NCBI GenBank assembly: GCA_016203225.1
Contig: JACQNC010000006.1
Span: 72,552-136,551, forward strand
DNA from: Candidatus Woesearchaeota archaeon
GTDB taxonomy: Archaea > Nanobdellota > Nanobdellia > Woesearchaeales > ARS49
Length of the DNA: 64,000 nt
Direction: 5' to 3'
A program made the translations under genes and the position numbers. How positions within the stretch are numbered: position 1 is the stretch's first letter; the number at the start of each line of letters is the position of its first letter. The notes below the pieces were generated by a model, which had not been told where the DNA came from, ran no database searches, and worked only from the letters and a program-made list of their open reading frames with translations. Positions 21,790-64,000 of this stretch are shown in pieces.

Positions 21790-21798
21790 AGGTGCACC

Positions 21799-22935: not shown

Positions 22936-22936
22936 C

Positions 22937-23524
22937 ATGGCACTACTCGATTTCCTGAAGAAACCGGCACCCGCTGCGCCTGCTGCACCGCCCGTCGACC
23001 AAGTGCTCGCCATGCAACAGCAAGGACTCGCGAACAGCCAGATAGTGCAAGCGTTGCAGCGCCAAGGCTATGACACGAGCGCGATAATGGATGCCATGTC
23101 GCAGGCAGAAGCGAAACGCGGCGTCGAACCGATGACCCCTCAACCCGAAGAGATGCCTCCCCTGCCTTCCGCGCCGCCCGCACCGGCGCGCGCAGAGGCG
23201 TTCGAGGAGATAGCCGAACACATCGTCGACGAGAAGTGGCAGGACTTCACCAAGGAGATGGGGAAGATGGCCGAATGGAAGGACTCAGTCAACTCACGCC
23301 TGGACCGGCTCGAACAGAGCATGAGCGACGTGAAGGCCGACCTCGAAAACCTGCACAAGAGTATCATCAGCAGGATCGGCGAATACGACAAGAACCTCCT
23401 CGATGTCGGCACTGAGATCAAGGCCATGGAGAAGGTCTTCCAGAAAGTCCTCCCGACGCTCACGGAGAACGTCGCCGAACTTTCACGTGTCACGAAGCAG
23501 GTCAAGGGACCTGCCAAGAAATGA
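22937..23524 (+). CDS. coiled-coil protein with an N-terminal helical G-x5-I-x3-L-x3-G-Y module and a Pro/Ala linker
   Basis: 195 aa. The N-terminal module QQGLANSQIVQALQRQGYDTSAIMDAM is followed by a PAPA-rich linker, then heptad-like text (LDRLEQSMSDVKADLENLHKSI). Confidence 0.65.
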   Translation: MALLDFLKKPAPAAPAAPPVDQVLAMQQQGLANSQIVQALQRQGYDTSAIMDAMSQAEAKRGVEPMTPQPEEMPPLPSAPPAPARAEAFEEIAEHIVDEKWQDFTKEMGKMAEWKDSVNSRLDRLEQSMSDVKADLENLHKSIISRIGEYDKNLLDVGTEIKAMEKVFQKVLPTLTENVAELSRVTKQVKGPAKK

Positions 23525-44866: not shown

Positions 44867-46198
44867 ATGAAACAGTGGCTACTATTCTTGATACTCGCGG
44901 TCTTCTTCGCGGTCCAGATCCCGAGCGTGCTGCACCAGCATCCAGGATGGGATGAGTCAGTCTATATCGGAATCGGAAAATACCTGTTCTCTGAAGGAAC
45001 ATCCGGGCTTTACGAACCGATCAGACCATTGCTCTTGCCGGCCATAATGGGCGCGACATGGACGCTCGGCGGCGGGCTGGTCGCATCGCGGTTTCTGATG
45101 CTTGTCATAGCGCTGATCGCGATAGGCCTCGCGTGGATAGTAGGGAACGAGCTTGGCGGCGAGCCTGCGGCGTTCTGGTCTGCGCTCATCCTTGCAGCGG
45201 CGCCGGTGTTTTTCGGAGATGCGACAAGCGTCACGACGGATCTTCTTGCGGGCCTTCTCATCCTCGCGACCGCATGGCAAGCGCGGAAGAATATCCTGAT
45301 CTCAGGGATCCTTGCCGGACTCGCGTTCGCGACGAAATTCCCTGCGGGTCTCGCATTGATTTTCCCGTTGTTGGCATCGCGCATGGATGCGAGGAAGATT
45401 GGCGCGGCGCTCGCAGGATTCGCGCTCATCGTGCTGCCTTACCTCGCCGCGAATGCCGTGCTTGAAGGAGATCCTTTCGAGCCGCTGCTTCTTGCGTCAC
45501 GACATGCCGGCAACCGAGCGTACGCGGTCCCGGGACTGCTGCAGAACCTCTCGTTCTATCCCTTAGCACTCTTGGGAGCAAGCCCTTTGCTCGTGTTCGC
45601 GCTGCTCGGGCTCGCATCGACACGGCGACGCGCGTTGCAGTTCGGCACGCTGGTCGTAATCGCGTATTTCGTGCTCATCGACAACAAGCAGCCCAGGTTC
45701 GCGCTGCTGTTCCTGCCATTGCTCGCGGTGTTCGCTGGCGCCGGAATTGTTTATTGCCGCGAACACGCAAAACGGACCGCCACCATCCTGCTTATCGCGG
45801 GATTGGCGATTACAATAATCAACGACGCCCCTCTTGCGAACGATTTCGGAGAACGCCCCGATATCGAAGGATTCGAGGTCGCGGCAAGGTATGGGACTGT
45901 GCTCACGGCAGACCCCCGGTTCTCGGCGTACCACGACAACCGCGCGCTGCCGATGTATTATCTGCCGTTCGATGTAATGAACGCGACTACAGCGTACGAC
46001 CTCGGAGCGCCCATCGCAGGAGCGGCTATATTCCGCGAGGACTCGTTCGCATGCGAGAAGTTCAAGGCAGAATGGTGCTCTGCGCTTGTCGACTCACTCA
46101 AATCACGGCTCGAAAAACATCCAATCGCGCACATGGACGGCGTCGTCGTGTATCAACTCACCGGAGAGATTCCGGCGTCAGCCACGAAAGGCATTTAA
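44867..46198 (+). CDS. GT-C fold glycosyltransferase (PMT/ArnT, GT39-like)
   Basis: 443 aa with more than 10 TM segments. The first loop, HQHPGWDESVYIG, contains an acidic DE motif typical of the dolichyl/undecaprenyl-phosphate-sugar transferase family. Confidence 0.6.
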   Translation: MKQWLLFLILAVFFAVQIPSVLHQHPGWDESVYIGIGKYLFSEGTSGLYEPIRPLLLPAIMGATWTLGGGLVASRFLMLVIALIAIGLAWIVGNELGGEPAAFWSALILAAAPVFFGDATSVTTDLLAGLLILATAWQARKNILISGILAGLAFATKFPAGLALIFPLLASRMDARKIGAALAGFALIVLPYLAANAVLEGDPFEPLLLASRHAGNRAYAVPGLLQNLSFYPLALLGASPLLVFALLGLASTRRRALQFGTLVVIAYFVLIDNKQPRFALLFLPLLAVFAGAGIVYCREHAKRTATILLIAGLAITIINDAPLANDFGERPDIEGFEVAARYGTVLTADPRFSAYHDNRALPMYYLPFDVMNATTAYDLGAPIAGAAIFREDSFACEKFKAEWCSALVDSLKSRLEKHPIAHMDGVVVYQLTGEIPASATKGI

Positions 46199-46221
46199 AC
46201 GCGGTTCTGCCGAAAAACCCC

Positions 46222-46935
46222 ATGGATTCACGTATTCCGACAGGTTGCGGCGTGCTGGACAAACTCCTCAGCGGCGGCCTTGATGCGGACTGCATCACCA
46301 CGATATATGGCCCCGCTGGCTCTGGCAAGACAAACCTGGCGTTGATCGCCGCGGTCACCGCCACGCTGCGTGGCAAAAAGGTAATCTACATGGACACCGA
46401 AGGTGGGTTCTCTGTCGAACGCCTGAAGCAGCTCTGCAAAGACCATGCGCATGTGCTCGAGAACGTTCTTTTCTTGCGGCCCACGACGTTCCAGGAACAG
46501 GTCGAGGCGTTCACCAGACTCAGATCACTCGTGACCGCCAAGATCGGCCTGATCGTGGTAGACAGCATCAGCATGCTATACCGTCTCGAGCTCGGCAGCA
46601 GCGAGGAAGCATACGATGTCAACCGCGCATTGGGGAAGCAGCTCGCGGCGCTCACGGAGATAGCGCGCAAGAAAAGCATCCCAGTCATCCTTACGAACCA
46701 GGTCTACTCGTCATTCGATGAGCGCGAGAAGGTCAACATGGTCGGCGGCGACCTGTTGCGGTACGGCAGCAAGTGCCTGGTCGAACTGCAGATCACGCCG
46801 TCGAACAAGCGCCGCGCGATCCTGCGCAAACACCGTAGCCTCGCACCCGACATAGAGACCGTGTTCCAGATCGTCGGGACCGGGATTGTCGAAGCGAAAG
46901 AGAGCAGAGGGTTCAATTTGTTCAGGAAAGAGTAA
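46222..46935 (+). CDS. radB: RadB recombinase paralog
   Basis: Trimmed to MDSRIPTGCGVLDKLLSGGL. Walker A is GPAGSGKTN. It has no N-terminal HhH domain and is 237 aa. The track's 5' extension overlaps the preceding gene. Confidence 0.85.
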   Translation: MDSRIPTGCGVLDKLLSGGLDADCITTIYGPAGSGKTNLALIAAVTATLRGKKVIYMDTEGGFSVERLKQLCKDHAHVLENVLFLRPTTFQEQVEAFTRLRSLVTAKIGLIVVDSISMLYRLELGSSEEAYDVNRALGKQLAALTEIARKKSIPVILTNQVYSSFDEREKVNMVGGDLLRYGSKCLVELQITPSNKRRAILRKHRSLAPDIETVFQIVGTGIVEAKESRGFNLFRKE

Positions 46936-49828: not shown

Positions 49829-50830
49829 TCAAACGTCGATGACGCCCTTGCCCTCGTCGATCTGGAAGACAGCTTCGCTCTCCGCGAGGTTGGGCGCGTC
49901 GATCATCTTGGCGACACGTGAACCCTTCTTGCCACGTCGGAGATAGACTCGGTACGTGCTGTTGTGCGCGACCACGTGGCCGCCGACAGCCTCGGTCGGA
50001 TCGCCGAAGAACATGTCCGGTTTGACCATGACTTGGTTCGTTACGTAGACCGCGAAATTGTACTTCTCCGCGAGCTTCATCAAGACGTGCATGTGCTTGT
50101 TGATGCGCTGTTGGCGATCAGCGAGCGTGCCGCGACCGACGAACTCCGCACGGAAGTGCGCGGTGAGAGAGTCGACGATCAACAGCTTGACGTTCATGCC
50201 CTGCTTCTTGATGAGATCCTCGACCTTCTCCGCAAGCAGCATCTGATGGTCGCTGTTGAAGGCGCGCGCGACCTTGATGTTCTTCAACGTCGCCTCGGGA
50301 TCGAGGCCGTTGCCCTTCGCGATCTGCACTATGCGTTCAGGACGGAACGTGCCTTCCGTGTCGATGAAGACCACAGAACCGTTCGCGCCACCCTTGTCGG
50401 TCGGCAACTGCGCGCGCACGGCGAGCGTGTGCGCGATCTGCGACTTACCGGAACCGTACTGGCCATACGCCTCCGTGATCGCCGCGGTCTCGAACCCGCC
50501 GCCCATCAGCTTGTCCAGCTCCTTCGAGCCGGTCGTGATCTTGATCATCTGCTCGCGGCGACGCATCATCTCATCGCCCGACGCGAAGTCCATCTCGAGG
50601 TTCGCGCGCGCGATCGCGATGACCTTCTTCGCGGTCGCCTCGGACATCTCTGTCGCGCCGATGATCTCGCCCGGCGTGGCCACGGCGACACTCATCAAGT
50701 CAGCGAAACCGGCTGTTTCGAGCTTCTCGATCGTCGCAGGCCCGATGCCGGGCAGGTCCGCGATGCCGGTGATCTTCTTAACGACCTTCGGTTCTTCCAT
50801 CTCCAACTCAAGTTCTTGTCTCATCTTCAT
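49829..50830 (-). CDS. radA: RadA recombinase
   Basis: An N-terminal HhH region ([17 protein letters not shown]) is followed by a RecA core with Walker [15 protein letters not shown] lies upstream of the ATG. Confidence 0.92.
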
Positions 50831-52867: not shown

Positions 52868-53761
52868 TCACGCGAACGTGAACAGCAGACGCGTCACGAT
52901 GGGGTTGTCGCACAACGGCATCTTGTAGCCTGCGGTGTCCGGCAGCTTGTGCATGATCTCGACGCGATACTGATGCGCTGCTTCGTCCTCACCCTTCAGC
53001 GTCCACGCGAGATTAGGGGTCTCCTTGTTCAGCTGCGTGATGAGCTCGGTCACGCAGAACTTTGTCGCGGCGGCTGTCGCATCCTTGACGCGGCACGTGT
53101 CGAATTTCCCCACTCCGCTCGCTAACTGAGTGTAGATCTCCTTGAGCGGATACGCGTACCGCGCGGTCCACGCGACGCGCGGATAATAGTACTTGTTGAA
53201 AAGACGGTGGACATTCCCTGAATATTTCGCGGTACCGATGAGTTCCTCGAACCAACTCGGCTTTTCGTCATAGAGCGCTTGCACATCAGGAGGGAACGGC
53301 ACCTCGATCCGTTCAGGTCTCAGCGGAACGCCGACAACGACGAGAGGGTCATGCACGGCGACGATGTACGGAACGGGCGCACCGAGATCCGCGCTGATGC
53401 TGCTCCCGAGGTTGTTGCGCACGGTCTCGATCGAAGGGATGGCTTGCGCGGGGATGTACTGGACATCATCGATGAATCCGCCCATGCCCGCGAACTTGCA
53501 TCCGCGCGCGCCCGCGGTTCCTGCGCCTGCGGCGAGCTTGTAGACAGCATCCTCTGTCTTGTACCTCGCCTGGAGCTCGCGCGGCACGAAGACGTCGGAT
53601 TCCGCGCTTATGTAGTACGACAACAGATGCAAGCCGTGGCTTCCTGCTGGACGGAGCGCGATCTCGCTTGACTCGTCCAGACTGATGAACGCCGCGATTG
53701 CGACCATACCGATGAACACGAGGACGGTCAACGGCTCGAAGATGAAGAAGCCGCGCTTCAT
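52868..53761 (-). CDS. pilin-like protein (class III leader MKRG/FFIFE)
   Basis: The N-terminus MKRGFFIFEPLTVLVFIGMVAIAAFISL has Gly then Glu at +5 and a hydrophobic helix. ATGA coupling to the upstream gene. Confidence 0.65.
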   Translation of the reverse strand: MKRGFFIFEPLTVLVFIGMVAIAAFISLDESSEIALRPAGSHGLHLLSYYISAESDVFVPRELQARYKTEDAVYKLAAGAGTAGARGCKFAGMGGFIDDVQYIPAQAIPSIETVRNNLGSSISADLGAPVPYIVAVHDPLVVVGVPLRPERIEVPFPPDVQALYDEKPSWFEELIGTAKYSGNVHRLFNKYYYPRVAWTARYAYPLKEIYTQLASGVGKFDTCRVKDATAAATKFCVTELITQLNKETPNLAWTLKGEDEAAHQYRVEIMHKLPDTAGYKMPLCDNPIVTRLLFTFA

Positions 53762-54231
53762 GAACTCGCCTCGGTATACACGATAAGCATGTTGCTCCCA
53801 TCAGGCAACGGAAGCTGCGCGGTCGCTGTCTTTTTATCCTTTGCAGTCACTTCGGAACCTACTTCGAGAGGAAAAAGCGCAGGACCGCCTCGCGCGGGCA
53901 ACACAACGCGAAGCTGACGCGGACTCTGCGATGGGATCTGCGCAAGGAATGCCTCCATTTGCTGTTTGATAATGACCTGATTGTCATTCATGACCTCAAA
54001 CGCTAGCAGTTCCGCGAAAGGCACTTTGTCGCCACCCATATCCACGGTTTGCCGCAGATAAGCTGCGAGAACAGATTCAGCTGCCGAGCCGTGCACGGAC
54101 GTGAGCGGCGTGTACGCCTCATCTTTGGCGAAACTCTGGAAAACGAACATCAGTATCACCGTGAACAACAGCACCGCCCACGACATGATGATGATCAATT
54201 GGCGCGCCAGGATCTGTCCTTTGGAGTTCAT
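53758..54231 (-). CDS. pilin-like protein
   Basis: The N-terminus is MNSKGQILARQLIIIMSWAVLLFTVILMFVF. ATGA overlaps on both sides. Confidence 0.6.
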   Translation of the reverse strand: MNSKGQILARQLIIIMSWAVLLFTVILMFVFQSFAKDEAYTPLTSVHGSAAESVLAAYLRQTVDMGGDKVPFAELLAFEVMNDNQVIIKQQMEAFLAQIPSQSPRQLRVVLPARGGPALFPLEVGSEVTAKDKKTATAQLPLPDGSNMLIVYTEASS

Positions 54232-54743
54232 ATCTCGTTCACCCGCAGGACTTCCACCGTCGCCAAGGCTGGCTCGTCCCTGTTTTCTTCCCTGACCAGG
54301 ACCGTCGCAGTGATGGTGATGCCGCGCGTCGCGCCTGGCCCTGACGCGCCCAGTTGCGGCAGCAACCGCCTGTACAACTGCTCGTTGTAGTGGACGACCT
54401 GCGATCCTATCGTGATTTTGGCGGCGATCACGTTGTTGGGTTCTCCGTAATAGACCGCATCGAGTAGCGCCTTGTTGATGTCCTTGTCAATGAGCTTTGC
54501 CCCGTCAATGATGCCTGGAAGAGGCCGTCCTGTCAAAGAATCAGTCGCACCAAGCGCGTTCGGCGAGAACAGCAGGCGCTGCGCAAGGATGCCCGCATCC
54601 GCGTTGAACGTGTCGCGCTGGACGTTTATCTTACCGTCGAGCCAGAACAGCATGCTGCCGAAGATTATGACGAGCATCAATGCGGTGAACACTATCCAGG
54701 TCAGGATGTACGGCGTAGTCTGGGCTTTACTTGAGCGCATCAT
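54228..54743 (-). CDS. pilin-like protein
   Basis: The N-terminus is MMRSSKAQTTPYILTWIVFTALMLVIIFGS. It overlaps the upstream gene by 17 nt. Confidence 0.6.
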   Translation of the reverse strand: MMRSSKAQTTPYILTWIVFTALMLVIIFGSMLFWLDGKINVQRDTFNADAGILAQRLLFSPNALGATDSLTGRPLPGIIDGAKLIDKDINKALLDAVYYGEPNNVIAAKITIGSQVVHYNEQLYRRLLPQLGASGPGATRGITITATVLVREENRDEPALATVEVLRVNEI

Positions 54744-55617
54744 GGAGTTTCACCGCGGTCGTCTGGTACCAAGTCGGATTGTTCGCGACATCCGCGTCAC
54801 TGATGAGGAGATAGACCGCGGGCTTGTCGTGCGGCACGAGCGAGGAGTCATCAGGCAACGGGATAATGGCTGATTCGAACGCGCTGCCGAGCTGGATGTT
54901 GATCCGGGGCGTCAATCCGTTCACGAGCGCGCATGCGAGAGATCGACCTTGCGCGTTCGCATAAGCGATGACCTGGTTCCCTCCAACGACTGTCGCGACG
55001 AGCACGACCGCATTCGCACTCGCTTGTAACTGCTTCCGCGCCTCTTGATCCGCAACAATCTTAGACACATCCCCGGGAGCGGGAAGATACTTCGAGGGAT
55101 TCTGACCCACGAGCGTCGTGACGAGCAGTATTGTCTGAGGCGTCGGCACAGCCGGCAGGAACGCGATCTTCGCGAGCGACGGTAGCGCATCGCAGGCGTG
55201 CTTAAGCACGTTGCTCTGCTTGGTAGCATCAGCCCCTGCATGCACGACACCACCAGCGAGCTCGAGCGGAACCGAAACAGGATACTGGTCGCCATACGCG
55301 GTCTCCTCGAGAGTCTTGTCAAAACCGTAGGCAAGGCTCACATCGTTGTTCTTGCCGACCACGATCGAGCCGCTCGCGAAACCGACAGGAAAGCCCATCC
55401 CCACGCCAGGGATGCCGAGCTGGTAATGGATAGAGGTCTTGGCGTACACTTCCAGCGCTTCGCGCGTGAACTTGAGCTCCAGCCCCGCGAGCGAGTATTT
55501 CGGCAACTGGCTCTCCCGCGCCCGCTCGATGAGCTGGAACAATGCTATCGTCACTGCTATGACGAGCACGAACTCCAGTATCACCCACAATACCTGGGCT
55601 TGGCCGCGACCGTTCAT
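54727..55617 (-). CDS. pilin-like protein
   Basis: Trimmed to MNGRGQAQVLWVILEFVLVIAVTIALF, giving an ATGA overlap with the upstream stop. Confidence 0.6.
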   Translation of the reverse strand: MNGRGQAQVLWVILEFVLVIAVTIALFQLIERARESQLPKYSLAGLELKFTREALEVYAKTSIHYQLGIPGVGMGFPVGFASGSIVVGKNNDVSLAYGFDKTLEETAYGDQYPVSVPLELAGGVVHAGADATKQSNVLKHACDALPSLAKIAFLPAVPTPQTILLVTTLVGQNPSKYLPAPGDVSKIVADQEARKQLQASANAVVLVATVVGGNQVIAYANAQGRSLACALVNGLTPRINIQLGSAFESAIIPLPDDSSLVPHDKPAVYLLISDADVANNPTWYQTTAVKLHDALK

Positions 55618-57605
55618 GGAGACACACTGGCGCTCGGAGCAAAACTCGTCAGAGGGAAACAATTGGCATCTAGAATCGTCGAATCGTGACCGTTTCCGCA
55701 ATAGTATCCTGAACGACAGTACTCGATCGATTTCCACTTGTTGTCTACGCATTGGAATATCTTCTTGTTGTTGAGTGACGGCCATAGGCGTGAAATCGCA
55801 GTTGGGTCCGCCGCGAGATACTTGTCAAAATCATTGGCAGTCAAGTCTCCACAGCGGAACATTTGAACAGATGATGAACAGTCGTATCCTTCATAGACTT
55901 GGTCGATCCGCGTGCCTTTCGTAATCACAGGAAGCCCGTCACATGGACTCGTCTGCGAGCGGTGGTATCTCGTACATTCGAGGGCGAGCCAAGTGTGCGC
56001 GTCATTCGCGAGGGCGAGGAGCGCGAGTGAATCATCATATCCGTTCACAACGGCAGAATACCTCGCAAGCATTTCATCTATGAACTCTGAAGAAGGAGTC
56101 TTGCCTTGCGCAAGCAGCGACGCAAGTCCTGCACCATAAGCCCTCGCGATGCCGTAATCTGCGACTGCAGGGTGCACGAGCGACTGCGGCGTCAATGCAT
56201 CGGCCGCCTGCACGAGTAGTTTGAGGCCGCTGGAAGAGATGCGTTTCTCGATCAGACCCTGCTGAATGCTCAGCGTGCCCAGCAAATACATGATAACCGG
56301 ATCGTCAGGTCTGCCTTGCTGGAGTTTCTTGAAGCGCTCAACGGCACGATCAATTGAAGCTTTATCATTTGCGGAAAGGCCATACGCCCTGTTGAATTCG
56401 TGACCAAACTCTACAACCCACGGCAGCGGCAATGCCGTCAATAACACTTCATTCGTCTGCTCGAAATAGCCCTTGATCCCGTACTGCTTCATGAAGGCCA
56501 GCGCAGCATCAGCAGCTTCGGTCAGCTTATCTGCAAGCAAGTAAGATTCGGATACCCTGAACGCGGCTTTGGGCACGAGCGTTTTATATTGCGTTTCGAT
56601 CGATTCCTCCCCTTTAGAAGCGTCAAGGAATTGCTGGTATAATTGCGCGGCCTCGATATATTTCGCCTTGTTCGTCGTGCCTTCCTTGAATGCGATCTCT
56701 GCCAAGGAATAGGTGTTAGTGAAGAAAAGCTCCTCGACCCTTAGACGACGCGCATCGACGATCTTCTGGAACCGCGCGTTCTGCTCCTCATTTCCTGTGA
56801 TGGTGATGAGAATGAACGTCTTGCCATGAACAACGGCCTTCTCGACATATAGCGCGGTGTTCCGCAGCTCTCCGCCGATAGTATCGCACTGACCGTACAA
56901 CAAGAATGAAGCCAGCGCACTCTTGGGATTGCCGCCCCAACAATAATTCAACCGATTGTATTTGTCGTTTGGATTCAAGTAGTCTAGTGGCAGAAGCTCC
57001 TTATACGCTTCATCCTGAGCCCAGGAGTAGCATTGCCCTCTCAGCGCTTTGGCAGCAAGTTCTGGCTGAGGGAATGCGAAATCGTAAAAGGGAGTGGTAT
57101 CGGTCTTCGTATACCAAAATGACAGTATCGACGTGACTCCCGGGAACGAACGACACGCGATTGGCTGTTCGGGACTGTCGCTGTCGCGGCTGAAATCATC
57201 GCTTCCGGCAGGATCGGGATACAGACACAAGCAGGCATCATCGCCACATTTATCCATTGGTTTGACAACCTGCTCCCAGTCGCTTCCGATGTCACAGAAA
57301 TCAACAGGATTCTCGTTCCCTTTATTGAATCCCACCATGACGTATGAGTCATCCATGTAGATTGGCAAATCAAACGCTGGCGAGTCCTTTGCTGGCAGGA
57401 ACGGCCGATTGTCAGCAAGCAGTTTTTCAATTCGATGGGCCAACGAAAGAAAACTGTACGTCGTGGCCTGCTCCTCTTGCGAATTCCCCGCGAGCACGAA
57501 CCTCACGATGAAGATGAGAAATCCCGCGACGACGACTACTACTAAGATCAGCCCTACTAGTTCCCAGAGAACCTTACCCGTTTCCTCTTGGCCACGTTTG
57601 TTCAT
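55614..57605 (-). CDS. large (663 aa) extracellular protein with a pilin-like leader, a helical-repeat centre and Cys-rich ends
   Basis: The N-terminus is MNKRGQEETGKVLWELVGLILVVVVVAGFLIFIV. The middle region is helical and TPR-like by eye. The C-terminal 120 aa contain 8 Cys. Confidence 0.65.
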   Translation of the reverse strand: MNKRGQEETGKVLWELVGLILVVVVVAGFLIFIVRFVLAGNSQEEQATTYSFLSLAHRIEKLLADNRPFLPAKDSPAFDLPIYMDDSYVMVGFNKGNENPVDFCDIGSDWEQVVKPMDKCGDDACLCLYPDPAGSDDFSRDSDSPEQPIACRSFPGVTSILSFWYTKTDTTPFYDFAFPQPELAAKALRGQCYSWAQDEAYKELLPLDYLNPNDKYNRLNYCWGGNPKSALASFLLYGQCDTIGGELRNTALYVEKAVVHGKTFILITITGNEEQNARFQKIVDARRLRVEELFFTNTYSLAEIAFKEGTTNKAKYIEAAQLYQQFLDASKGEESIETQYKTLVPKAAFRVSESYLLADKLTEAADAALAFMKQYGIKGYFEQTNEVLLTALPLPWVVEFGHEFNRAYGLSANDKASIDRAVERFKKLQQGRPDDPVIMYLLGTLSIQQGLIEKRISSSGLKLLVQAADALTPQSLVHPAVADYGIARAYGAGLASLLAQGKTPSSEFIDEMLARYSAVVNGYDDSLALLALANDAHTWLALECTRYHRSQTSPCDGLPVITKGTRIDQVYEGYDCSSSVQMFRCGDLTANDFDKYLAADPTAISRLWPSLNNKKIFQCVDNKWKSIEYCRSGYYCGNGHDSTILDANCFPLTSFAPSASVSP

Positions 57606-57611
57606 GAGTCA

Positions 57612-58049
57612 TTAGCACGTCGCGCCTATTGCGCAGCATTGGAATGGATCGATGTTGACCAGTCGCGGACATTTTTGCTTGAGTTTTTCCAAATCAGTCT
57701 CAGTCCCCGGGTCTTCATTACAGCAGGCGAGCATGGGCGAGGCAGCGGTCTTCTTAGTGTCTTTGTCGCATTTATCTGCAACGAAGTCCTGGTCGCTCTG
57801 CGTGAAGTCGTTTCCGCCCAAACACGGATCGCAGAAATCCGCGAGTTTGTCCTTGTCAGTATCCTGGAATCCAGAACTGCTGATCTTGCACGTCGCGATC
57901 TGGCTCCGCAAGGCCGCAGGTGTGGCTTGTTTTATCGCCGCGCTTGCCGAAGTGCCACCCTTGTACACGATCACGAGCACGATCGCTGCCGCTGCCAAGA
58001 CCACGATCAACATCACTATCATAAAATTTATGTCACCTCTTTTGAGCAT
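57612..58049 (-). CDS. pilin-like Cys/Asp-rich protein
   Basis: Trimmed to MLKRGDINFMIVMLIVVLAAAAIVLVIV, with GGAGG 8 nt upstream. It contains DTDKDKLADFCDPC and two CC pairs. Confidence 0.65.
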   Translation of the reverse strand: MLKRGDINFMIVMLIVVLAAAAIVLVIVYKGGTSASAAIKQATPAALRSQIATCKISSSGFQDTDKDKLADFCDPCLGGNDFTQSDQDFVADKCDKDTKKTAASPMLACCNEDPGTETDLEKLKQKCPRLVNIDPFQCCAIGATC

Positions 58050-58051
58050 CG

Positions 58052-58291
58052 TCAACCTCCTGGAATGCAGCACTTCTGCGTGCCTTTGCAGTCGTTCGTG
58101 AACACTGTCGCGGGCTTTGCATCGGGACACGATTCAGTGATGGCCTGACAGGCGCCATTCTGTCCGGCACAGGAACCGAACTGTCCTGCGCCGCGATACG
58201 TATTTGTGACTGCGATGATGAGAACCAATGCCAATACGAGCACAACCACCATGATCGCGATGATCTCAACCGTTGTGAATCCGCGCTTCAT
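58052..58291 (-). CDS. mini-pilin with a bacterial-type G/FTxxE leader and the C-C-C-C-CC framework
   Basis: Trimmed to MKRGFTTVEIIAIMVVVLVLALVLII (ATGA overlap). The mature tail is SCAGQNGACQAITESCPDAKPATVFTNDCKGTQKCCIPGG. Confidence 0.7.
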   Translation of the reverse strand: MKRGFTTVEIIAIMVVVLVLALVLIIAVTNTYRGAGQFGSCAGQNGACQAITESCPDAKPATVFTNDCKGTQKCCIPGG

Positions 58292-58626
58292 CCATAACAT
58301 CCGTCAACACCCCAGTAACATGATTTTGGTGTGCATTCCTGCGCATTGCAGCGCGCTTCAGTCGTGTAGTCTGTGCACTTATTAATATTCTCATCACCGC
58401 AGAAGCAAGGTTTCTCGGAAGGACCGTTCTCGCAACAGTAACCAGAAATCACGCGGATGCCGTTGCACGGACATTCCTTGGTCACTTTTCCCGGGGAGCA
58501 TCCGAACGTGATCCCTGTCGTTCCGGTCTCGAGCGTCTTGCTGGCCACGATCCAAATGAACAACACCATCGCGGCGAGCGCGACTATCCAAAACACCACC
58601 ATGCCTATGGTCGCCGCGCGCCTCAT
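58288..58626 (-). CDS. pilin-like protein with a 12-Cys ectodomain
   Basis: The N-terminus is MRRAATIGMVVFWIVALAAMVLFIWIV. The tail is GCSPGKVTKECPCNG...CCENGPSEKPCFCGDENINKCTDYTTEARCNAQECTPKSCYWGVDGCYG. Confidence 0.65.
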   Translation of the reverse strand: MRRAATIGMVVFWIVALAAMVLFIWIVASKTLETGTTGITFGCSPGKVTKECPCNGIRVISGYCCENGPSEKPCFCGDENINKCTDYTTEARCNAQECTPKSCYWGVDGCYG

Positions 58627-58757
58627 TGGAACGCGCCTCCGACCAGGTTGGGAAACTTGCCGCCCCAGATCACGAACAGCGCGATGCCGATGGCGATTGC
58701 GATGACTGCCAGTATCATCCAGATGACGACATCCTGCGAAACATCTCCTCTTTTCAC
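58623..58757 (-). CDS. 44-aa mini-ORF: pilin-leader plus a single TM helix (GTG start)
   Basis: Own translation gives (M)KRGDVSQDVVIWMILAVIAIAIGIALFVIWGGKFPNLVGGAFQ. It is below the ORF-track size cut-off. ATGA overlap with the next gene, and a TATA box 21 nt upstream. Confidence 0.5.
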   Translation of the reverse strand: MKRGDVSQDVVIWMILAVIAIAIGIALFVIWGGKFPNLVGGAFQ

Positions 58758-58777
58758 GGTCTGCTTGTCGGCAGGGT

Positions 58778-58787
58778 TATTTATAAA
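58778..58787 (-). promoter_or_regulatory. TATA box (minus strand tttataaata) heading the 58757-52868 gene string
   Basis: The proximal edge is 21 nt from the GTG at 58757. It directly follows the stop of the upstream gene. Confidence 0.45.
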
Positions 58788-58788
58788 C

Positions 58789-59634
58789 CTATGCTGGCGC
58801 GGACTGCGAAGCTGGAAAGACGGTGCAGCCCAGATTCCTTATCGATTGCTGCGTGTGCGGCATGAACACGATGGAGGACGTGTACTCATAGTTGGTCGTT
58901 GATGCCAATTGGTACACGAGAATCGCGACCCCGCTACCGGGCAGCAATGTGTTCGCGACGCTTAGAGTGACAATAGTGCCGAGAGTCTCTCCCATGACAC
59001 TGCTCAATGCAGCTTGGACTCTTCCATACGTTGCATCGATGGCTGTCTTGACAGCAGTCTTCACTTCAGTCCTCTTGTAGACGAAGATCGAAGCCCAATT
59101 GTCCTTGGTGTCGATGCGCGCCGCTTGATCGCTCTCGAACTTGGCAAGAACTTGCTGAGCGTCAGGACCCAGGCGTTGACCCGTGAAATACTCAAGATAG
59201 CTCATGCCTCCTCTGGGAACGCTGAACTGTCCCAACGTCGCGAACAGCCCGGTGATTGTCCTTCCCTTTGTCTCGGCCTCGAACACAGTGCAGACATCAC
59301 AGAACACTCCTGTTTGGAGCTTGAACATCTCTTCTTTACCCTCATGCCACCGATTCCAGCACCGATACATCGCGTGCGCAATCGTCTGCTTGACCTGCTC
59401 ATCCGAACCTTCAAACCCGAGGACTTCAGTCTGACAATTGATGCGTTGCGGAAGAACCGTTTCGAACACACCGCTGTTGATCATGCGATCAATGCTATCC
59501 GCACACTGTGAAGAAGACACTAACGAACCGCCTCGCTCGAACAATTGTTGCCCGAACACGATCAATACCACGATCACGGTCAGCATGAGCAAGAGCGCCA
59601 CCAACATTCTTTGAGGGACCGCGCCGCGCTTCAT
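58789..59634 (-). CDS. pilin-like protein, paralog of 59631..60374
   Basis: Trimmed to MKRGAVPQRMLVALLLMLTVIVVLIVFG (ATGA overlap). It shares the YRCWNRWHEG...GVFCDVCTVFE...GGMSYLEYF pattern with its neighbour. Confidence 0.65.
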   Translation of the reverse strand: MKRGAVPQRMLVALLLMLTVIVVLIVFGQQLFERGGSLVSSSQCADSIDRMINSGVFETVLPQRINCQTEVLGFEGSDEQVKQTIAHAMYRCWNRWHEGKEEMFKLQTGVFCDVCTVFEAETKGRTITGLFATLGQFSVPRGGMSYLEYFTGQRLGPDAQQVLAKFESDQAARIDTKDNWASIFVYKRTEVKTAVKTAIDATYGRVQAALSSVMGETLGTIVTLSVANTLLPGSGVAILVYQLASTTNYEYTSSIVFMPHTQQSIRNLGCTVFPASQSAPA

Positions 59635-60374
59635 GGATACCTCGTGAACGTGATCTCGCATGCTTTGTTGAGATTCGTGGCAGGCGTGATGAAGACCATA
59701 CTATACCCGCTTTCGGCGGATTCAACACCACTCCAGGTAAGCCCTCCTCCCGCGACTTGCACCAATCGCCGTTCTGTGCTTGCCCAATGCACGACCGCGT
59801 AAGGCGTTCCCTTGACTAGAGCGTCGACATAAACAACCTTGTTTGCATTCGGCTCAATCGCGTCGGTAAACAAGAACTCAGGATTTGCTCCTGGCGCGCT
59901 CTTGCTCAGATACTCATAATACGTCTCTCCACCAGTCATTTTGCTACGTTTCATCCACGCGAGGATGTCGCTCGTCTCGATGCCCGCCTCGTCCTTTGGC
60001 AGGTTGAACGTTGAACAGACAAAACAGGCATCAATGCCGTTGAAAAAATCCCCCTTCCAGGGCACGCCTCCTAACTCCCCGAACTGGAAGCGACACTCAT
60101 AAAGGTACCGCGCGACTTGCGATGCCATCTCGTCGGTGTACTTCGCAGACTCTCCCGAATAGTCCAATGTTCCCACGTCCCGCGTGAAGCAACTGTTGAG
60201 ATTGACGAACTGTTTGCTCTTGATCGCGAGCGCCACGTTGCTCTTGCACGCATTTAGATCCACCTGGCCGCGGCCCTTGCCGATCACGCTGTACGCGACG
60301 CCACCGAGCACCAAGCCGCCCGCAACCGCGAGGATGATGGCGACGAGAGCCGTCTCGGCGATGGCCTTGCGCAT
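59631..60374 (-). CDS. pilin-like protein, paralog of 58789..59634
   Basis: Start at the ATG at 60374 (the track starts at a GTG one codon earlier). The N-terminus is MRKAIAETALVAIILAVAGGLVLGGVAY, followed by YECRFQFGE...DACFVCSTFN...GGETYYEYL. Confidence 0.65.
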   Translation of the reverse strand: MRKAIAETALVAIILAVAGGLVLGGVAYSVIGKGRGQVDLNACKSNVALAIKSKQFVNLNSCFTRDVGTLDYSGESAKYTDEMASQVARYLYECRFQFGELGGVPWKGDFFNGIDACFVCSTFNLPKDEAGIETSDILAWMKRSKMTGGETYYEYLSKSAPGANPEFLFTDAIEPNANKVVYVDALVKGTPYAVVHWASTERRLVQVAGGGLTWSGVESAESGYSMVFITPATNLNKACEITFTRYP

Positions 60375-60481
60375 CACGCGCCTCCGAAGAACCGCGACGC
60401 CAGGAAGTAGAACAGCAGAATGAAGAACACCGCCGTGAGGACCAGCATAATCAACTGATCCGTCGACATCCCCTTTTTCAT
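60374..60481 (-). CDS. 35-aa mini-ORF: pilin-leader plus a single TM helix
   Basis: Own translation gives MKKGMSTDQLIMLVLTAVFFILLFYFLASRFFGGA. TGATG overlap with the next gene. TATA box ttttataaa (60502-60510) lies 21 nt upstream of the ATG. Confidence 0.5.
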   Translation of the reverse strand: MKKGMSTDQLIMLVLTAVFFILLFYFLASRFFGGA

Positions 60482-60501
60482 GACGAGAACGCAGGCTATC
60501 G

Positions 60502-60510
60502 TTTATAAAA
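60502..60510 (-). promoter_or_regulatory. TATA box heading the 60481-58789 gene string
   Basis: The minus strand reads ttttataaa, 21 nt upstream of the ATG at 60481. Confidence 0.45.
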
Positions 60511-60521
60511 GGCTTTCGGGC

Positions 60522-60791
60522 TCACGAAAGCTTGCAGCATATACCTGGGCAATCGATCCAACCTTGCGCAGGCACGGGCGTCACAGAATTAGTTCCTGAC
60601 GCACAACTCGTCCCCGACTGGCATTGACCGACCTTGCCGCAGATGCGTTTCTCGGCTTCGGTCTGCAATCCAGAAGTGCCTTGGCCGAACAGGTTGAACC
60701 GTGTGACAAGCAATCCAATCAGCAACAACACAACTATCAACGCGATGACGAGCGCGACTACTACACCTATGGACATATCGCCGCGTTTCAT
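60522..60791 (-). CDS. Cys-rich mini-pilin 3 (C-C-C-C-CC framework)
   Basis: Trimmed to MKRGDMSIGVVVALVIALIVVLLLIGLLV (ATGA overlap). The tail is ICGKVGQCQSGTSCASGTNSVTPVPAQGWIDCPGICCKLS. Confidence 0.7.
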   Translation of the reverse strand: MKRGDMSIGVVVALVIALIVVLLLIGLLVTRFNLFGQGTSGLQTEAEKRICGKVGQCQSGTSCASGTNSVTPVPAQGWIDCPGICCKLS

Positions 60792-61042
60792 GAGGTCGCG
60801 ATGCAACAGTAGCCGTTGCCCTTGATCGGCGGCGTCTTACCGTCGTCACAATTAACAGTAGGAATAGCTGACGCCTGCTCGCACTTCACCGCGGAATCAG
60901 CGCAGTAACCCTTGCACGTGCCGAGCCCTTTGCCGAAGAGCTGCACGCGGCCAGTGAACACGACTATCAACACGACCAGAACTATAAGCGCGATAGCCGT
61001 TATGACGATGACATTAATCGATATCCCTTGAGCGCGCTTCAT
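60788..61042 (-). CDS. Cys-rich mini-pilin 2 (C-C-C-C-CC framework)
   Basis: Trimmed to MKRAQGISINVIVITAIALIVLVVLIVVF (ATGA overlap). The tail is TCKGYCADSAVKCEQASAIPTVNCDDGKTPPIKGNGYCCIATS. Confidence 0.7.
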   Translation of the reverse strand: MKRAQGISINVIVITAIALIVLVVLIVVFTGRVQLFGKGLGTCKGYCADSAVKCEQASAIPTVNCDDGKTPPIKGNGYCCIATS

Positions 61043-61290
61043 TGCACGTTGATGCAGCACGTCTGTGACGCTCCGGAGGTCGTCTCAGGGCAAGTCCACG
61101 CGGCATACGAATTCGTGCCTGACGGACAGTCGCCGACCACGCAACGGCCGCCCTTGTTCTCGCAGTCAGCGCTCTGCTGCGTGAACAATCCGAACCGTCC
61201 CAAGAACACGACGCTGAGCACGACCAGGACGAGCAGCGCGATGGCCGCGACAACGATGACATTGATCGAGATTCCCTGTGCTTTCTTCAT
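61039..61290 (-). CDS. Cys-rich mini-pilin 1 (C-C-C-C-CC framework)
   Basis: Trimmed to MKKAQGISINVIVVAAIALLVLVVLSVVF. GAGGTG lies upstream, and a TATA box ttttatata is at 61328-61336. The tail is DCENKGGRCVVGDCPSGTNSYAAWTCPETTSGASQTCCINVQ. Confidence 0.7.
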   Translation of the reverse strand: MKKAQGISINVIVVAAIALLVLVVLSVVFLGRFGLFTQQSADCENKGGRCVVGDCPSGTNSYAAWTCPETTSGASQTCCINVQ

Positions 61291-61517
61291 ACAGCACCTC
61301 TGTTTGGGCATTTTCCTGGCTCGGTTGTATATAAAACTATCTTGGGGCAGCATCATGCTTGACGACACAGCTTTGACCTGCGGACATCTCCCCGACATGA
61401 GCGTCCCAGGCACGATCGACGTCGTCGCCTTACCGACATTGAAACGACCACGACAACCGTGGCAAATGCAACAGCAGGGGACTGTAACAGATATAAACCT
61501 GGGCACATGGAACCCGA

Positions 61518-62009
61518 TCACACTACCGGACGTTCTGCGCGTTCCTGCACTAAAGCATCGATGAACGCCGGATCGGCCAGGAACTCCTCGCGCTTGAGGT
61601 CGTCTACGACATAGTACACCTCGCAGCCCTTGATGTCATGCTTGGTCTTCAGCTGGTCGAGGAAGTCCTCGAGATCCTTGATGTTGCGGAACACGCACTC
61701 GGCAAGGAAGTCGAACCCGTTGTTGACCTTGTAGAGCGAATTCACCCAGGCGTGCTTCAACAAGTGCTGTCTCAATAGGTCACGGTCCTTGCCCGCTCTG
61801 AGCAATACGTTCGCGCGCGTGCCAAACCCGATCGCGCCGAAGTTCAAGAGCGACACCGTCTTGTGCACGACGCTGCTCTCGTATTCAGCGAGTTTGTCGA
61901 ACAGAGTGCTCACAGGAATGCCGGTCAGCCTGCTCAAGGTCGTGAGCCTGCAGCGCGCGTTGCGCCGGAAATGGCTCAGTATCGTCAAATCCTTTTTGTT
62001 GAGCTGCAT
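61518..62009 (-). CDS. Lrp/AsnC-family transcriptional regulator
   Basis: Trimmed to MQLNKKDLTILSHFRRNARCRLTTLSRLTGIPVSTLFDKL (HTH), with GGAGG upstream. A C-terminal RAM-like domain follows. Confidence 0.7.
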   Translation of the reverse strand: MQLNKKDLTILSHFRRNARCRLTTLSRLTGIPVSTLFDKLAEYESSVVHKTVSLLNFGAIGFGTRANVLLRAGKDRDLLRQHLLKHAWVNSLYKVNNGFDFLAECVFRNIKDLEDFLDQLKTKHDIKGCEVYYVVDDLKREEFLADPAFIDALVQERAERPVV

Positions 62010-62131: not shown

Positions 62132-63052
62132 ATGCCAGCACACGCTCCACCACCCATGAAGCGCAAGGTCATCAAGCTCGCCAAGAACACCCTCGTCCTT
62201 TCTTTGCCGGCGGCATGGTGCAAAGCCAACCAGGTGAACAAAGGCGATGAACTCTCATGTGAACACCGCAGCAGCCAACTCACCATCACCAAGAACGCCT
62301 CTGGCAAAAAAGCGACGACAATCGATGGTGACGCGCTCGGCGTGCTCCTCAAACGCGCAATAAACGAGCTCTACCACGCGGGCGTCGACCGCATAACGAT
62401 CCGCGCAACCAAGCCAGAGACGCAGCAACGCCTCGGCGAAGCGCTCAACCAACTCCTCGGCCTCCATGTCGTCGAACAGCGCGCCAGCACCATCATCGTT
62501 GAGGACCTCGCAAAAACCGACCAGGACTGGCCTTCATTGTTCCGCAGATTCCTCCTGTTGATCAAGACGATGTTCGACGACGGCATCGCCGCGATCGAAG
62601 CCAACGACGCGGCTGAATGCGCGGCCATCGCGAACCGCGACACAGACGTCAACAAGTTCGGCCATCTCTGCCTCCGCGCATTGCAGAAGCAACCGTTCGC
62701 GCCCGACGAGACCGCACGGCTCCACACGCTCCTCTACCTCACGGAACAGCTCGGCGACGACCTCAAGAACATCCTACGCAGCCCCGCCGCATCGGCGGTG
62801 CTTCCCGCATTGCCGAGCGCGAACGCGCTCTACGCTGCGGCGACGCATTTCTTCTTCCAACGCACGCTCACGAACGCCCACGCGGTCGCGCACGCGAACG
62901 ACGAAGCGACCCAACGCGCGTCAAAACTCGCGGTCACGAACGAGACCGCCGTGCCGGTGATCCGGCTGCATTCGTTCATCAAAAAAGCGGTGTCCATCCA
63001 AGAACTGTTCTTGCACGAATTGCAGGATGCACACCATGCCACCATTCAATAA
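62132..63052 (+). CDS. AbrB/SpoVT-domain plus PhoU-like regulator (second copy)
   Basis: KRKVIKLAKNTLVLSLPAAWCKANQV is AbrB-type, followed by helical PhoU-like repeats. The start is at 62132, or at MKRKV (62156). Confidence 0.65.
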   Translation: MPAHAPPPMKRKVIKLAKNTLVLSLPAAWCKANQVNKGDELSCEHRSSQLTITKNASGKKATTIDGDALGVLLKRAINELYHAGVDRITIRATKPETQQRLGEALNQLLGLHVVEQRASTIIVEDLAKTDQDWPSLFRRFLLLIKTMFDDGIAAIEANDAAECAAIANRDTDVNKFGHLCLRALQKQPFAPDETARLHTLLYLTEQLGDDLKNILRSPAASAVLPALPSANALYAAATHFFFQRTLTNAHAVAHANDEATQRASKLAVTNETAVPVIRLHSFIKKAVSIQELFLHELQDAHHATIQ

Positions 63053-64000
63053 CAAGTACGAACTCGTCGAACAGCTCGCGACAAGCACGACCAAGACCGT
63101 CTGGAAAGCGTACGACACACTGCAAGGCAGACCGGTCGCGCTCAAGCTCTACCATCATGTCCAAAAATATGACCTGGACACTCTCGTCCGGGCCGAGGCC
63201 GCCGCGCTGACCCGCGTCAGGCACCACCCGAACGTCGCAGAGATCTACGACGCCAACAATGACCAGAAGACAGGCCAGTTCTTCATCGCAGAGGAATACG
63301 CTGAAGGCGAGACTCTCGCGCATTGGCTCGCAACACGCACCTCGATGAACCCGAGCCGCCTACGCAGATTGCGGAGCATCACCCGCGACATCCTGCGCGG
63401 CGTGGACCACATCCATCGCGCAGGCCTCGTGCATGGCGACCTCAAACTCGAGAACATCCTGCTCACGCCCACGGGCGCGAAGATAACTGATTTCGGCTCT
63501 TCGGTCATGAAGGGCCAGAGCGTCAGCACGGGCGCGCTACGATACCACGCGCCAGAATTGATCAAAGACGGCACACGGACGAGCGCAAGCGACATCTGGC
63601 AGGTCGGGATCCTCATGTATCGCGCGACGACGGGCCGATTCCCGTTCGGCATCCCTGAAGAGATGTGGGAACGCATCCCGGCCGACAAGAAAGGCACGTA
63701 CAGAGACGCGGTCCATCGGCAGATCATTGAACAGCACGTCATCGACCCGCGGGCATACAACAGCGACATCTCCCGGCGCATGCGCAACACCATACTCTCC
63801 TGCCTCGAGAAGGATCCTGCGAAGCGACCAAGCGCGCGCAAGGCACGCTGGATGCTCAGACCGTACTGGATGTATGAGGCGACAGGACTCGGACTGCTCC
63901 TCGGTCCTGTGCTCGCGTTCACTCTATGGAACTTCTGGCTCTCCAAACCGGAGACCCCCGAACGAATCTATTACACCTCGCGGATGAGCGGCAACGCTGA
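63036..64000 (+). CDS. Hanks-type Ser/Thr protein kinase with a C-terminal TM helix (3' end beyond the window)
   Basis: Own translation from ATG 63036 gives MPPFNNKYELVEQL...VALKLY...HGDLKLENILL...DFG...YHAPE...DIWQVGILMY, then GLGLLLGPVLAFTLWNFWL. The frame is open to nt 64000. It overlaps the previous gene by 17 nt. Confidence 0.85.
   Translation, partial: MPPFNNKYELVEQLATSTTKTVWKAYDTLQGRPVALKLYHHVQKYDLDTLVRAEAAALTRVRHHPNVAEIYDANNDQKTGQFFIAEEYAEGETLAHWLATRTSMNPSRLRRLRSITRDILRGVDHIHRAGLVHGDLKLENILLTPTGAKITDFGSSVMKGQSVSTGALRYHAPELIKDGTRTSASDIWQVGILMYRATTGRFPFGIPEEMWERIPADKKGTYRDAVHRQIIEQHVIDPRAYNSDISRRMRNTILSCLEKDPAKRPSARKARWMLRPYWMYEATGLGLLLGPVLAFTLWNFWLSKPETPERIYYTSRMSGNA

Follow-up and report, generated by a model that had tools for sequence, protein, structure and literature searches.

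A conserved array of pilin-like genes in a Woesearchaeota genome probably encodes subunits of an archaeal type IV filament

What is built from a run of 15 genes that lie on one strand and whose products all open with the same kind of N-terminus, in a tiny archaeon that is probably symbiotic? This question is raised by an island at positions 52868-61290 of a 64-kb stretch of DNA (hereafter the window) from a Candidatus Woesearchaeota metagenome-assembled genome (MAG). The island consists of 15 open reading frames (ORFs; g1 to g15, Table 1) arranged head to tail on the minus strand and encoding products of 35-663 aa, of which g11 is identical to HY493_02190. A previous reading of the letters without database searches (the sequence-only reading) had listed 15 minus-strand genes of this size range, and all of them were recovered at the coordinates given there. 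It had taken the products for type-IV-pilin-like substrates of a prepilin peptidase, and this proposal is supported by a fixed [KR][GA]|Q site (the bar marks the predicted cut), by AlphaFold models, and by linkage to an assembly ATPase in a relative. With a probability of roughly three in four, the island encodes the structural building blocks of a pilus-like system of the archaeal type IV filament (TFF) class.

That these ORFs are genes can be judged from a close relative, represented by a Logan contig (L001) whose housekeeping proteins are ~95% identical to those of the window (range 86-97%). All 15 genes are found there in the same order, including both mini-ORFs (g4 and g7), with the Lrp, AbrB-PhoU, and kinase genes on one side and RPA, YdjM, and RadA on the other. 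The ratio of nonsynonymous to synonymous substitution rates (dN/dS) against L001 is 0.03-0.26 for each gene, the ORFs of 35 and 44 aa included, which indicates that the entire set is under purifying selection. Furthermore, the cysteine counts of g1 to g15 are identical in both genomes (6, 6, 6, 0, 6, 6, 0, 12, 6, 10, 16, 2, 0, 0, and 4). The synteny of 15/15 genes, the low dN/dS, and the constant cysteine numbers together argue for genes and against chance ORFs. As the counts are even and strictly conserved, they also speak for an extracellular location.

The island is widespread among related archaea. When one genome per GTDB species was scanned, 170 species genomes were found to encode a relative of the mini-pilins (g1 to g3), and 80 loci were fetched. 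In these loci, 811 ORFs with a class-III-like N-terminus lie on the strand of the mini-pilin vs 39 on the opposite strand, with a median of 13 per 20-kb locus. A profile of g1-g3 and g9 yielded 853 matches, all of them ~80-90 aa long, all annotated as 'hypothetical', and all from Woesearchaeota or Nanoarchaeota MAGs. Comparative genomics, which the sequence-only reading had named as a check, has in this way revealed a syntenic island in related Woesearchaeota genomes with each of its genes under selection. A mobile-element or viral origin was considered and ruled out, since RPA and YdjM adjoin the island in 21-37 of the 80 species loci and the genes are under purifying selection. Many island-bearing records (L015, L016, L018, L019, and others) are titled 'uncultured Methanosarcinales archaeon' or 'Candidatus Binatia bacterium'. 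Because the synteny of island, RPA, and YdjM is of the Woesearchaeota or Nanoarchaeota type there, these records are probably mislabelled bins or contigs.

The feature shared by all products is the N-terminus. A [KR][GA] motif occurs within the first 4-7 residues of 15/15 products, and 18-25 uncharged residues come next, except in g12, in which this stretch comprises 12 aa and is broken by one Glu. The basic leader and hydrophobic helix that had earlier been read on every product are therefore present. In a relaxed rule-based scan of 610 window ORFs (at least 34 aa), 18 N-termini were positive, 14 of which belong to island genes. When the window is compared with L001, L002, and L004, every one of the 15 families retains the motif, and G and A are exchanged at position -1 in at least eight of them. 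To obtain a closer view, the best 115 of the 853 mini-pilin homologs were aligned on the mature motif and not on the cleavage site, so that the result for [KR][GA] is not circular. Position -2 is K or R in 113/115 of these sequences, position -1 is always occupied by A (64) or G (51), and position +1 is Q in 106/115. The leader varies in length from 3 to 38 aa, and the 28 residues after the site (QGISINVI..AAIALLVLVVL..GR) are almost invariant.

Gln at +1 is encoded by g1, g2, and g11-g14 as well as by four further genes past the window end (10/19). In the nine remaining genes of the island its place is taken by D, M, I, A, or F, as in PibD-type substrates. The bacterial G|F...E(+5) arrangement is seen in g9 and g15. 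The processed Epd pilins of Methanococcus maripaludis are cut at RA|QI, KG|QV, KG|QL, and KG|QI, and the peptidase EppA requires Gln at +1 (PMC4371748). These observations support the view that the conserved [KR][GA] is a prepilin-peptidase (class III) site, at which the leader would be removed. For 'MKKAQG', a cut after Gly had been suggested earlier; cleavage after Ala appears more likely (KKA|QG in g1 and KRA|QG in g2). Cleavable Sec-type signals were also considered for these N-termini and were ruled out, as the stretch of 18-25 aa is the most conserved part of the proteins and no AxA-type site follows it. Outside the island, L083 encodes a 507-aa pilin-like protein (207-1730, minus strand) directly downstream of the ATPase, which begins with MSKKS|QITYFIIIAIVV... 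and has Ser at -1; the -1 rule may thus be slightly broader in distant relatives.

Conservation is concentrated in the helix. Over their first 35 residues, the 15 proteins match L001 at 74-100% identity vs 36-94% over the remainder, and in g11 the respective values are 97% and 36%. Leader and helix of the g1 and g11 families were aligned in register by hhalign (probability 92%, E 6.6e-7). An AlphaFold2 model of g1 (from a 107-sequence alignment; mean predicted local distance difference test score, pLDDT, 84.8) consists of a helix (residues 9-40) and a small three-stranded knot. The model of g11 (84-sequence alignment; pLDDT 82.5, predicted template modeling score 0.81) starts with a 61-residue helix (4-64), to which a beta domain (~80-270), a superhelix resembling tetratricopeptide repeats (TPR; 273-546), and another beta domain (615-651) are attached. 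The models of both proteins thus show a helix-plus-beta architecture. When the whole g11 model was searched with Foldseek, only TPR proteins were found, and these matched the TPR part. The g11-family profile gave four non-significant PDB matches, of which three are type IV pilins (PilE1, 8pfb; an archaeal Pilin_N protein, 8fjs; and a DUF973 protein, 8tib) and one is a designed protein.

A filament of this kind needs an assembly machine, and its candidate components are encoded elsewhere in the window (Table 1). The ATPase matches FlaI (E 5e-36) and TadA (E 2e-34), in both cases below the family cut-offs. The presumed platform protein has at least seven hydrophobic segments and two soluble inserts, and its role is proposed from its position and topology. 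The three ~190-aa membrane proteins and the coiled-coil protein travel with the ATPase, in the same order in L017 and also in L083, and may be unrecognized machine components. In the window, no pilin genes lie near the ATPase locus and the island is 25 kb away, as the sequence-only reading had said of the ATPase standing apart. In the relative L017 (JBGPOY010000005.1), one strand carries the three membrane proteins, the coiled-coil protein, the ATPase, the platform protein (731 aa), g1 to g15, RPA, and YdjM in a row. Island and ATPase operon therefore form one locus in a relative and are 25 kb apart in the window.

Whereas the helices are kept, some ectodomains are not. At the nucleotide level, the flanks and g1-g2 are 85-90% identical to L001, and the identity falls abruptly to 35-50% in g11 from codon ~60 to the end and in the C-terminal halves of g5 and g14. 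These mosaic segments lie within 55614-57450 (g11), 59631-60000 (g5), and 53758-54040 (g14). Synonymous sites of g11 are saturated after codon ~60, and the first 60 codons are at the genome background. The sharp drop and the saturated synonymous sites indicate recombinational allele replacement, by which the ectodomains of g11, g5, and g14 would have been exchanged and the assembly helix kept; such a mosaic pattern is familiar from variable pilins and adhesins. Four genomes encode proteins of 663, 644, 453, and 286 aa at the position of g11. Word-indexed homolog searches with g11 and g15 returned the query itself and one ortholog only. Exhaustive HMMER searches yielded 121 representative g11 relatives of 124-925 aa, most of which open with the same [KR][GA] motif. 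As these relatives share only the first ~160-280 residues, g11 can be described as a modular pilin with variable C-terminal cargo.

The sequence-only reading had treated 52868-61290 as the whole unit, but the system continues just past the window end with four further genes of this type and one for a giant protein. They were found in L010, which stems from the same organism and is identical to the window where both overlap. Beyond the kinase gene, L010 carries four co-directional pilin-like genes (MRRG|QILGQVF..., ...RRVA|QLEVQFNW..., MRRA|QIKMFE..., and MPKQG|QMEILGL...), followed by a gene for a 1678-aa Cys-rich protein. Nothing above threshold was found for the four pilin-like genes in Pfam or NCBIfam. 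This second block lies at 1-6396 of L010, 1-2861 of L001, 3133-9932 of L006, and 476-8253 of L008; the giant protein has a Sec-type signal and measures 1389-1826 aa across relatives. The four small genes are present in 42-50 of the 80 loci. In the lineage of the window, the kinase, AbrB-PhoU, and Lrp genes separate the second block from the island. In the more distant L006-L009, it abuts the mini-pilins, and no regulators stand between the two pilin blocks, the Lrp/AsnC-type gene included. By analogy, four small pilin-like proteins next to a huge Sec-signal protein recall the minor pilins and PilY1 of bacteria. A distant version of the island additionally encodes a 232-aa Cys-rich protein (L008, 14521-15219) with a faint match to lytic transglycosylases (SLT), which could be a wall-degrading component.

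The island proteins also avoid N-glycosylation sites. In the 15 proteins, 0 N-x-S/T sequons were counted, compared with 11.9 +/- 3.2 in shuffled sequences (0/2000 shuffles were as low). The observed vs expected numbers are 2 vs 12.1 in L001, 0 vs 11.3 in L002, and 4 vs 6.3 in L004. Sequons are neutral in 18 cytoplasmic proteins of the window (27 vs 25.5) and enriched in the neighboring giant protein (24 vs 10.9). Across the 80 loci the depletion is weaker, with an observed-to-expected ratio of 0.55 vs 0.72 in controls. Like the even cysteine counts, the lack of sequons in the island proteins next to neutral cytoplasmic controls speaks for an extracellular location.

If the island does encode filament subunits, the N-terminal hydrophobic helix would insert each product into the membrane, and a prepilin (class III signal) peptidase would trim the basic leader of 4-7 residues after [KR][GA]. 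The mature, helix-first proteins would then be extracted from the membrane and polymerized by helix-helix packing, both driven by the FlaI/TadA-like ATPase and the putative platform protein. The highly conserved g1-g3 (~80 aa, helix plus predicted three-disulfide knot) are likely shaft subunits. Minor or tip subunits would be supplied by g4 and g7, which are helix-only peptides, and by the larger g5, g6, and g8-g15, with g11 as the likely adhesin on account of its predicted TPR superhelix and exchanged ectodomain. The four genes and the giant Cys-rich protein past the window end would probably form a priming or tip complex, comparable to minor pilins and PilY1. A bolder version can be put forward tentatively, although it is doubtful in its entirety: the island, the four additional genes, and the giant protein would together supply all structural genes of a hitherto unrecognized filament that occurs across the Woesearchaeales and by which these episymbionts attach to their hosts and recognize them. 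Its shaft would consist of ~80-residue subunits with a defensin-like knot and would avoid N-glycosylation, and its tip modules (g11 and the giant protein) would be swapped by recombination between near-identical genomes.

Several results weigh against a type IV filament. In Pfam scans down to E <= 1, no island protein matches Class_IIIsignal, Pilin_N, or N_methyl, and no NCBIfam pilin model is reached by the 15 proteins, apart from sub-threshold ComGC/ComGD scores for the N-terminus of g9 (E 0.007-0.05). The Flp family of Pfam gave no match either (E 8.4, for g9 only). Both scans agree with the earlier statement that none of the ectodomains could be assigned to a known family. The strict FlaFind hexamer, reportedly defined by Szabo et al. 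in 2007 as [KRDE][GA][ALIFQMVED][ILMVTAS]x3, fits only g3, g9, and g14 (3/15) when applied by hand, because of polar residues at +2 to +4 in the other products. No A24 peptidase (PibD, FlaK, or EppA) was found in the window, in ~17 kb of flanking DNA (L010 and L095, reaching ~7 kb past each window end), or near the island in the 80 loci; essentially all long window ORFs were annotated for this search, and the window and 94 loci were scanned for GxGDxK, the related loci by this crude motif search only. The nine-transmembrane-helix EppA was likewise not found in the window or near the island or the ATPase in L017 and L083, and its gene may lie in another part of the genome. The presumed platform protein has no PDB match, no Pfam T2SSF match, and no detectable internal repeat, which is why its role is only proposed. 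Of the 80 loci, only one has the ATPase and the island side by side, and one other has them no more than 6 kb apart. Moreover, with 32 residues the mini-pilin helix does not reach the ~53 residues of a classical alpha1, and the AlphaFold2 models cover 2 of the 15 island proteins (g1 and g11). The negative peptidase search, the lack of pilin-family matches, and the 25-kb distance to the ATPase would also fit a different explanation, namely that the N-termini are uncleaved signal anchors of type II membrane proteins in a surface complex unrelated to type IV filaments, given that the positive-inside rule alone accounts for K/R ahead of a transmembrane helix. This explanation is very unlikely, since it leaves unexplained why -1 is G or A in 115/115 homologs, why Gln is so frequent at +1, why the leader floats in length, and why the next 28 residues hardly vary. 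A single-pass anchor is normally less conserved than any other part of its protein, whereas the helix is the most conserved part here, and in L017 all 15 genes are placed right behind the ATPase-platform operon.

More serious, yet still unlikely, is the idea that the class III proteins build a short pseudopilus or a bindosome-like scaffold for the display or secretion of cargo (e.g., the giant Cys-rich protein) or for the uptake of DNA or substrates, after the models of bacterial type II secretion, Com systems, and the Sulfolobus bindosome. With at least 19 different subunits, many of them large, no single dominant pilin stands out, and the tight coupling of four pilin-like genes to a Sec-signal giant protein points in the same direction. 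The ComGC/ComGD-like N-terminus of g9 and a weak score of the ATPase against the bindosome ATPase BasE (E 7e-15) can be added, and functionalized TFF machineries have been discussed (10.64898/2026.04.22.720090). On the other hand, the tiny and extremely conserved g1-g3 with a promoter of their own fit a polymerizing shaft better, the island encodes no substrate-binding protein or ABC transporter, and a TPR subunit with swapped alleles suggests the recognition of a partner. The heads of the small proteins invite still another interpretation, in which g1-g3, g8, and g9 would be secreted or tethered defensin-like toxins or antimicrobial peptides directed at membranes of hosts or competitors. The g1 head (residues 43-79) has the dominant spacing C-x6-C-x4-C-x11-C-x10-CC, shared by 45/107 family members, and resembles beta-defensins in its six cysteines ending in CC, in the first spacings of x6 and x4, and in three short strands. 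Its Pfam Defensin_beta score is 19 bits (E 0.0014; cut-off 21), and the top 15 PDB matches in a Foldseek search of g1 were all beta-defensins (E 0.27-1.5, probability up to 0.8, target template modeling score 0.52-0.67). The family profile of the mini-pilins matches gallinacin-11 and crotamine at E ~1-3. In beta-defensins the disulfides connect C1-C5, C2-C4, and C3-C6. All these scores are sub-threshold, so that homology is not established; the later spacings differ, the head is fused to a pilin-type helix, and convergent evolution gives rise to small three-disulfide knots. Conservation is highest in the hydrophobic helix, which the large island proteins also have, and toxins would explain neither the other ten genes nor the linkage to the ATPase. 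The toxin interpretation is therefore far-fetched as a replacement for filament subunits, and it can be reconciled with a pilin bearing a knot-like head instead of standing against one.

How does the putative filament relate to known systems? Its working principle is that of an archaeal type IV filament, closest to the Epd or 'system 1' type. Like the Epd pili of M. maripaludis, the island combines short basic leaders of the [KR][GA]|Q type (in 10/19 genes) with many pilin-like genes, which in Epd are major and minor pilins, some of them encoded away from the ATPase. TFF 'system 1' is reported from methanogens and some DPANN (10.64898/2026.04.22.720090). Unlike in Epd, the ectodomains of the island have no sequence similarity, Class_IIIsignal is not matched, and EppA was not found (window, L017, and L083). 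One long platform gene is present instead of two, and 15-19 subunits are encoded in one co-directional array. Epd pilins are N-glycosylated, whereas the island ectodomains are predicted to be disulfide-rich and lack sequons. The Aap and Ups pili and the bindosome of Sulfolobus, whose subunits are PibD substrates, vary at +1 (KA|I, KG|I, and RA|L) as g3-g10 and g15 do, carry large functional ectodomains on a pilin-type N-terminus, and are served in the case of the bindosome by an ATPase that the one described here weakly resembles. In contrast to these systems, the island has no substrate-binding domains and no sequence relationship, and its families are DPANN-specific.

The likeness to the tip complexes and pseudopilins of bacteria is architectural. 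The second block, with its four small pilin-like proteins by a very large Sec-signal non-pilin, is reminiscent of the type IVa minor pilins with PilY1 and of GspH-K; g9 and g15 share G|F...E at +5 with bacterial pilins, and the island as a whole shares with them a conserved helix with variable heads. The differences from the PilY1 and Gsp systems are the archaeal FlaI/TadA-like ATPase, the lack of an N_methyl match, and the lack of any detected PilY1 or Gsp homology. Flp/Tad pilins resemble g4 (35 aa) and g7 (44 aa) in that little more than one helix remains after the predicted cleavage, and the mini-pilins are short too. However, g4 and g7 have no G|xxxxEY motif and head multi-gene strings, unlike Flp, which acts as the sole major pilin. 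A comparison can also be drawn with the type IV pili of Saccharibacteria, which are episymbiotic members of the candidate phyla radiation (CPR), as in both cases an ultrasmall and probably host-dependent organism has multiple pilin genes. The pili of Saccharibacteria mediate host binding (PMC11623550, PMC9894109). There, machinery and pilins are bacterial and the role toward the host is experimental, whereas for the island we infer it.

In these archaea, the pilins of such filaments had for the most part gone unannotated. He et al. stated that components of type IV pili are missing in DPANN genomes, and pili were used to tell CPR from DPANN in groundwater (10.1101/2020.05.14.094862). An earlier census of type IV pili in archaea could not assign pilins to the nanoarchaeal ATPases (PMC4858521), and a preprint from 2026 includes some DPANN among the carriers of TFF systems (10.64898/2026.04.22.720090). 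New here are unannotated, clade-restricted families with 13-19 pilin-like genes per conserved array in 170 Woesearchaeota species genomes. Their content is new as well and includes helix-only peptides, 80-aa pilins with a predicted three-disulfide head, a TPR pilin with swapped alleles, and, in contrast to the glycosylated pilins known from archaea, the avoidance of sequons. It is little understood how DPANN archaea recognize and hold their hosts, and such filaments are prime candidates for gripping other cells. The analysis supplies a diagnostic motif ([KR][GA]|Q-G-I-S-x-N...), a candidate shaft subunit, and a candidate adhesin with recombining alleles, and the island families could be added to pilin-finding tools. 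Candidate shaft subunit and adhesin may serve as targets for antibodies, cryo-electron tomography, metaproteomics, and host-range prediction. If the filament does attach to hosts with swappable tips, the g11 allele would predict the host range.

The layout of the island is compact. Within the strings of genes, eight junctions are 4-nt ATGA overlaps, in agreement with the earlier remark that most junctions overlap; one overlap of 1 nt, one of 17 nt, and gaps of 2 and 6 nt complete the set. The strings are separated by gaps of 40 nt before g4 and 31 nt before g7. Three strings, each headed by a TATA box, had been proposed; the boxes were found and are conserved, and the third string comprises a mini-ORF plus eight genes and not nine. 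As the TATA-like boxes keep their positions in relatives, the three strings (headed by g1, g4, and g7) are plausible transcription units. Relative to L001, the window has an insertion of ~170 bp (61323-61520), located upstream of the g1 promoter and before the Lrp gene is reached, which gives rise to a long spurious ORF (61039-61521) overlapping g1. The G+C content is 52-53% over 56001-60000 (g5-g11) vs 56-60% elsewhere in the window.

Table 1. Island genes, promoter-like boxes, neighboring regulators, and candidate assembly genes in the window (bars mark predicted cleavage sites)
Feature	Coordinates	Strand	Remarks
g1 mini-pilin, 83 aa	61039-61290	-	MKKA|QGISINVIVV..., helix and 6-Cys knot; AlphaFold2 pLDDT 84.8; candidate shaft subunit
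g2 mini-pilin paralog, 84 aa	60788-61042	-	MKRA|QGISINVIV..., 6 Cys; 66% identity to g1 over N-terminal 44 aa
g3 mini-pilin paralog, 89 aa	60522-60791	-	MKRG|DMSIGVVV..., 6 Cys
g4 helix-only subunit, 35 aa	60374-60481	-	MKKG|MSTDQL...; heads second string; conserved in L001, L002, L017; dN/dS 0.11
g5 pilin-like, 247 aa	59631-60374	-	MRKA|IAETALV..., 6 Cys; C-terminal half replaced vs L001; weak paralog of g6
g6 pilin-like, 281 aa	58789-59634	-	MKRG|AVPQRML..., 6 Cys; homologs in 38/80 related loci
g7 helix-only subunit, 44 aa, GTG start	58623-58757	-	(M)KRG|DVSQDVV...; heads third string; 98% identical in L001; dN/dS 0.03
g8 pilin-like, 112 aa	58288-58626	-	MRRA|ATIGMVV..., 12 Cys
g9 mini-pilin-like, 79 aa	58052-58291	-	MKRG|FTTVE..., 6 Cys; bacterial-style G|F...E at +5
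g10 pilin-like, 145 aa	57612-58049	-	MLKRG|DINFMIV..., 10 Cys
g11 large modular pilin, 663 aa	55614-57605	-	MNKRG|QEETGKVLWELVG..., 16 Cys; candidate adhesin
g12 pilin-like, 296 aa	54727-55617	-	MNGRG|QAQVLWVILEF...; G/A swap at -1 in L001, L002
g13 pilin-like, 171 aa	54228-54743	-	MMRSSKA|QTTPYILTW...; homologs in 33/80 loci
g14 pilin-like, 157 aa	53758-54231	-	MNSKG|QILARQL...; C-terminal half replaced vs L001
g15 pilin-like, 297 aa	52868-53761	-	MKRG|FFIFEP..., 4 Cys; F at +1, E at +5
TATA-like box TTTATATA	61328-61335	-	45 nt upstream of g1; box and distance same in L001, L002, L017
TATA-like box TTTATAAA	60502-60509	-	28 nt upstream of g4; conserved in L001, L017
TATA-like box TTTATAAA	58780-58787	-	30 nt upstream of g7; conserved in L001, L002
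Lrp/AsnC-type regulator	61518-62009	-	directly upstream of island, co-directional; same position in L001, L002, L004
AbrB/SpoVT-PhoU-type regulator	62156-63052	+	divergent from island
Ser/Thr kinase (620 aa in full)	63036-64000	+	cut by window end; second block lies beyond it
FlaI/TadA-like type IV filament assembly ATPase, 756 aa	24326-26596	+	T2SSE E 4e-14
Polytopic membrane protein, ~723-735 aa	26560-28767	+	presumed platform (PilC/TadC/FlaJ role); overlaps ATPase stop codon
Three paralogous polytopic membrane proteins of ~190 aa and a 195-aa coiled-coil protein	21217-23524	+	precede ATPase; no family match

The genes around the island are archaeal housekeeping genes, including RadA, RPA, RFC, and aminoacyl-tRNA synthetases. 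Two RadA/Rad51-family proteins are encoded (45754-46935, plus strand, and 49829-50830, minus strand), and the AbrB/MazE-PhoU type of regulator also occurs twice (10533-11474 and 62156-63052, both on the plus strand). Finally, a PocR-GAF-GGDEF protein is encoded at 7312-8823 on the minus strand (GGDEF E 5e-43) in this DPANN archaeon. Diguanylate cyclases are, to our knowledge, unusual in archaea, and the gene may be a bacterial acquisition.

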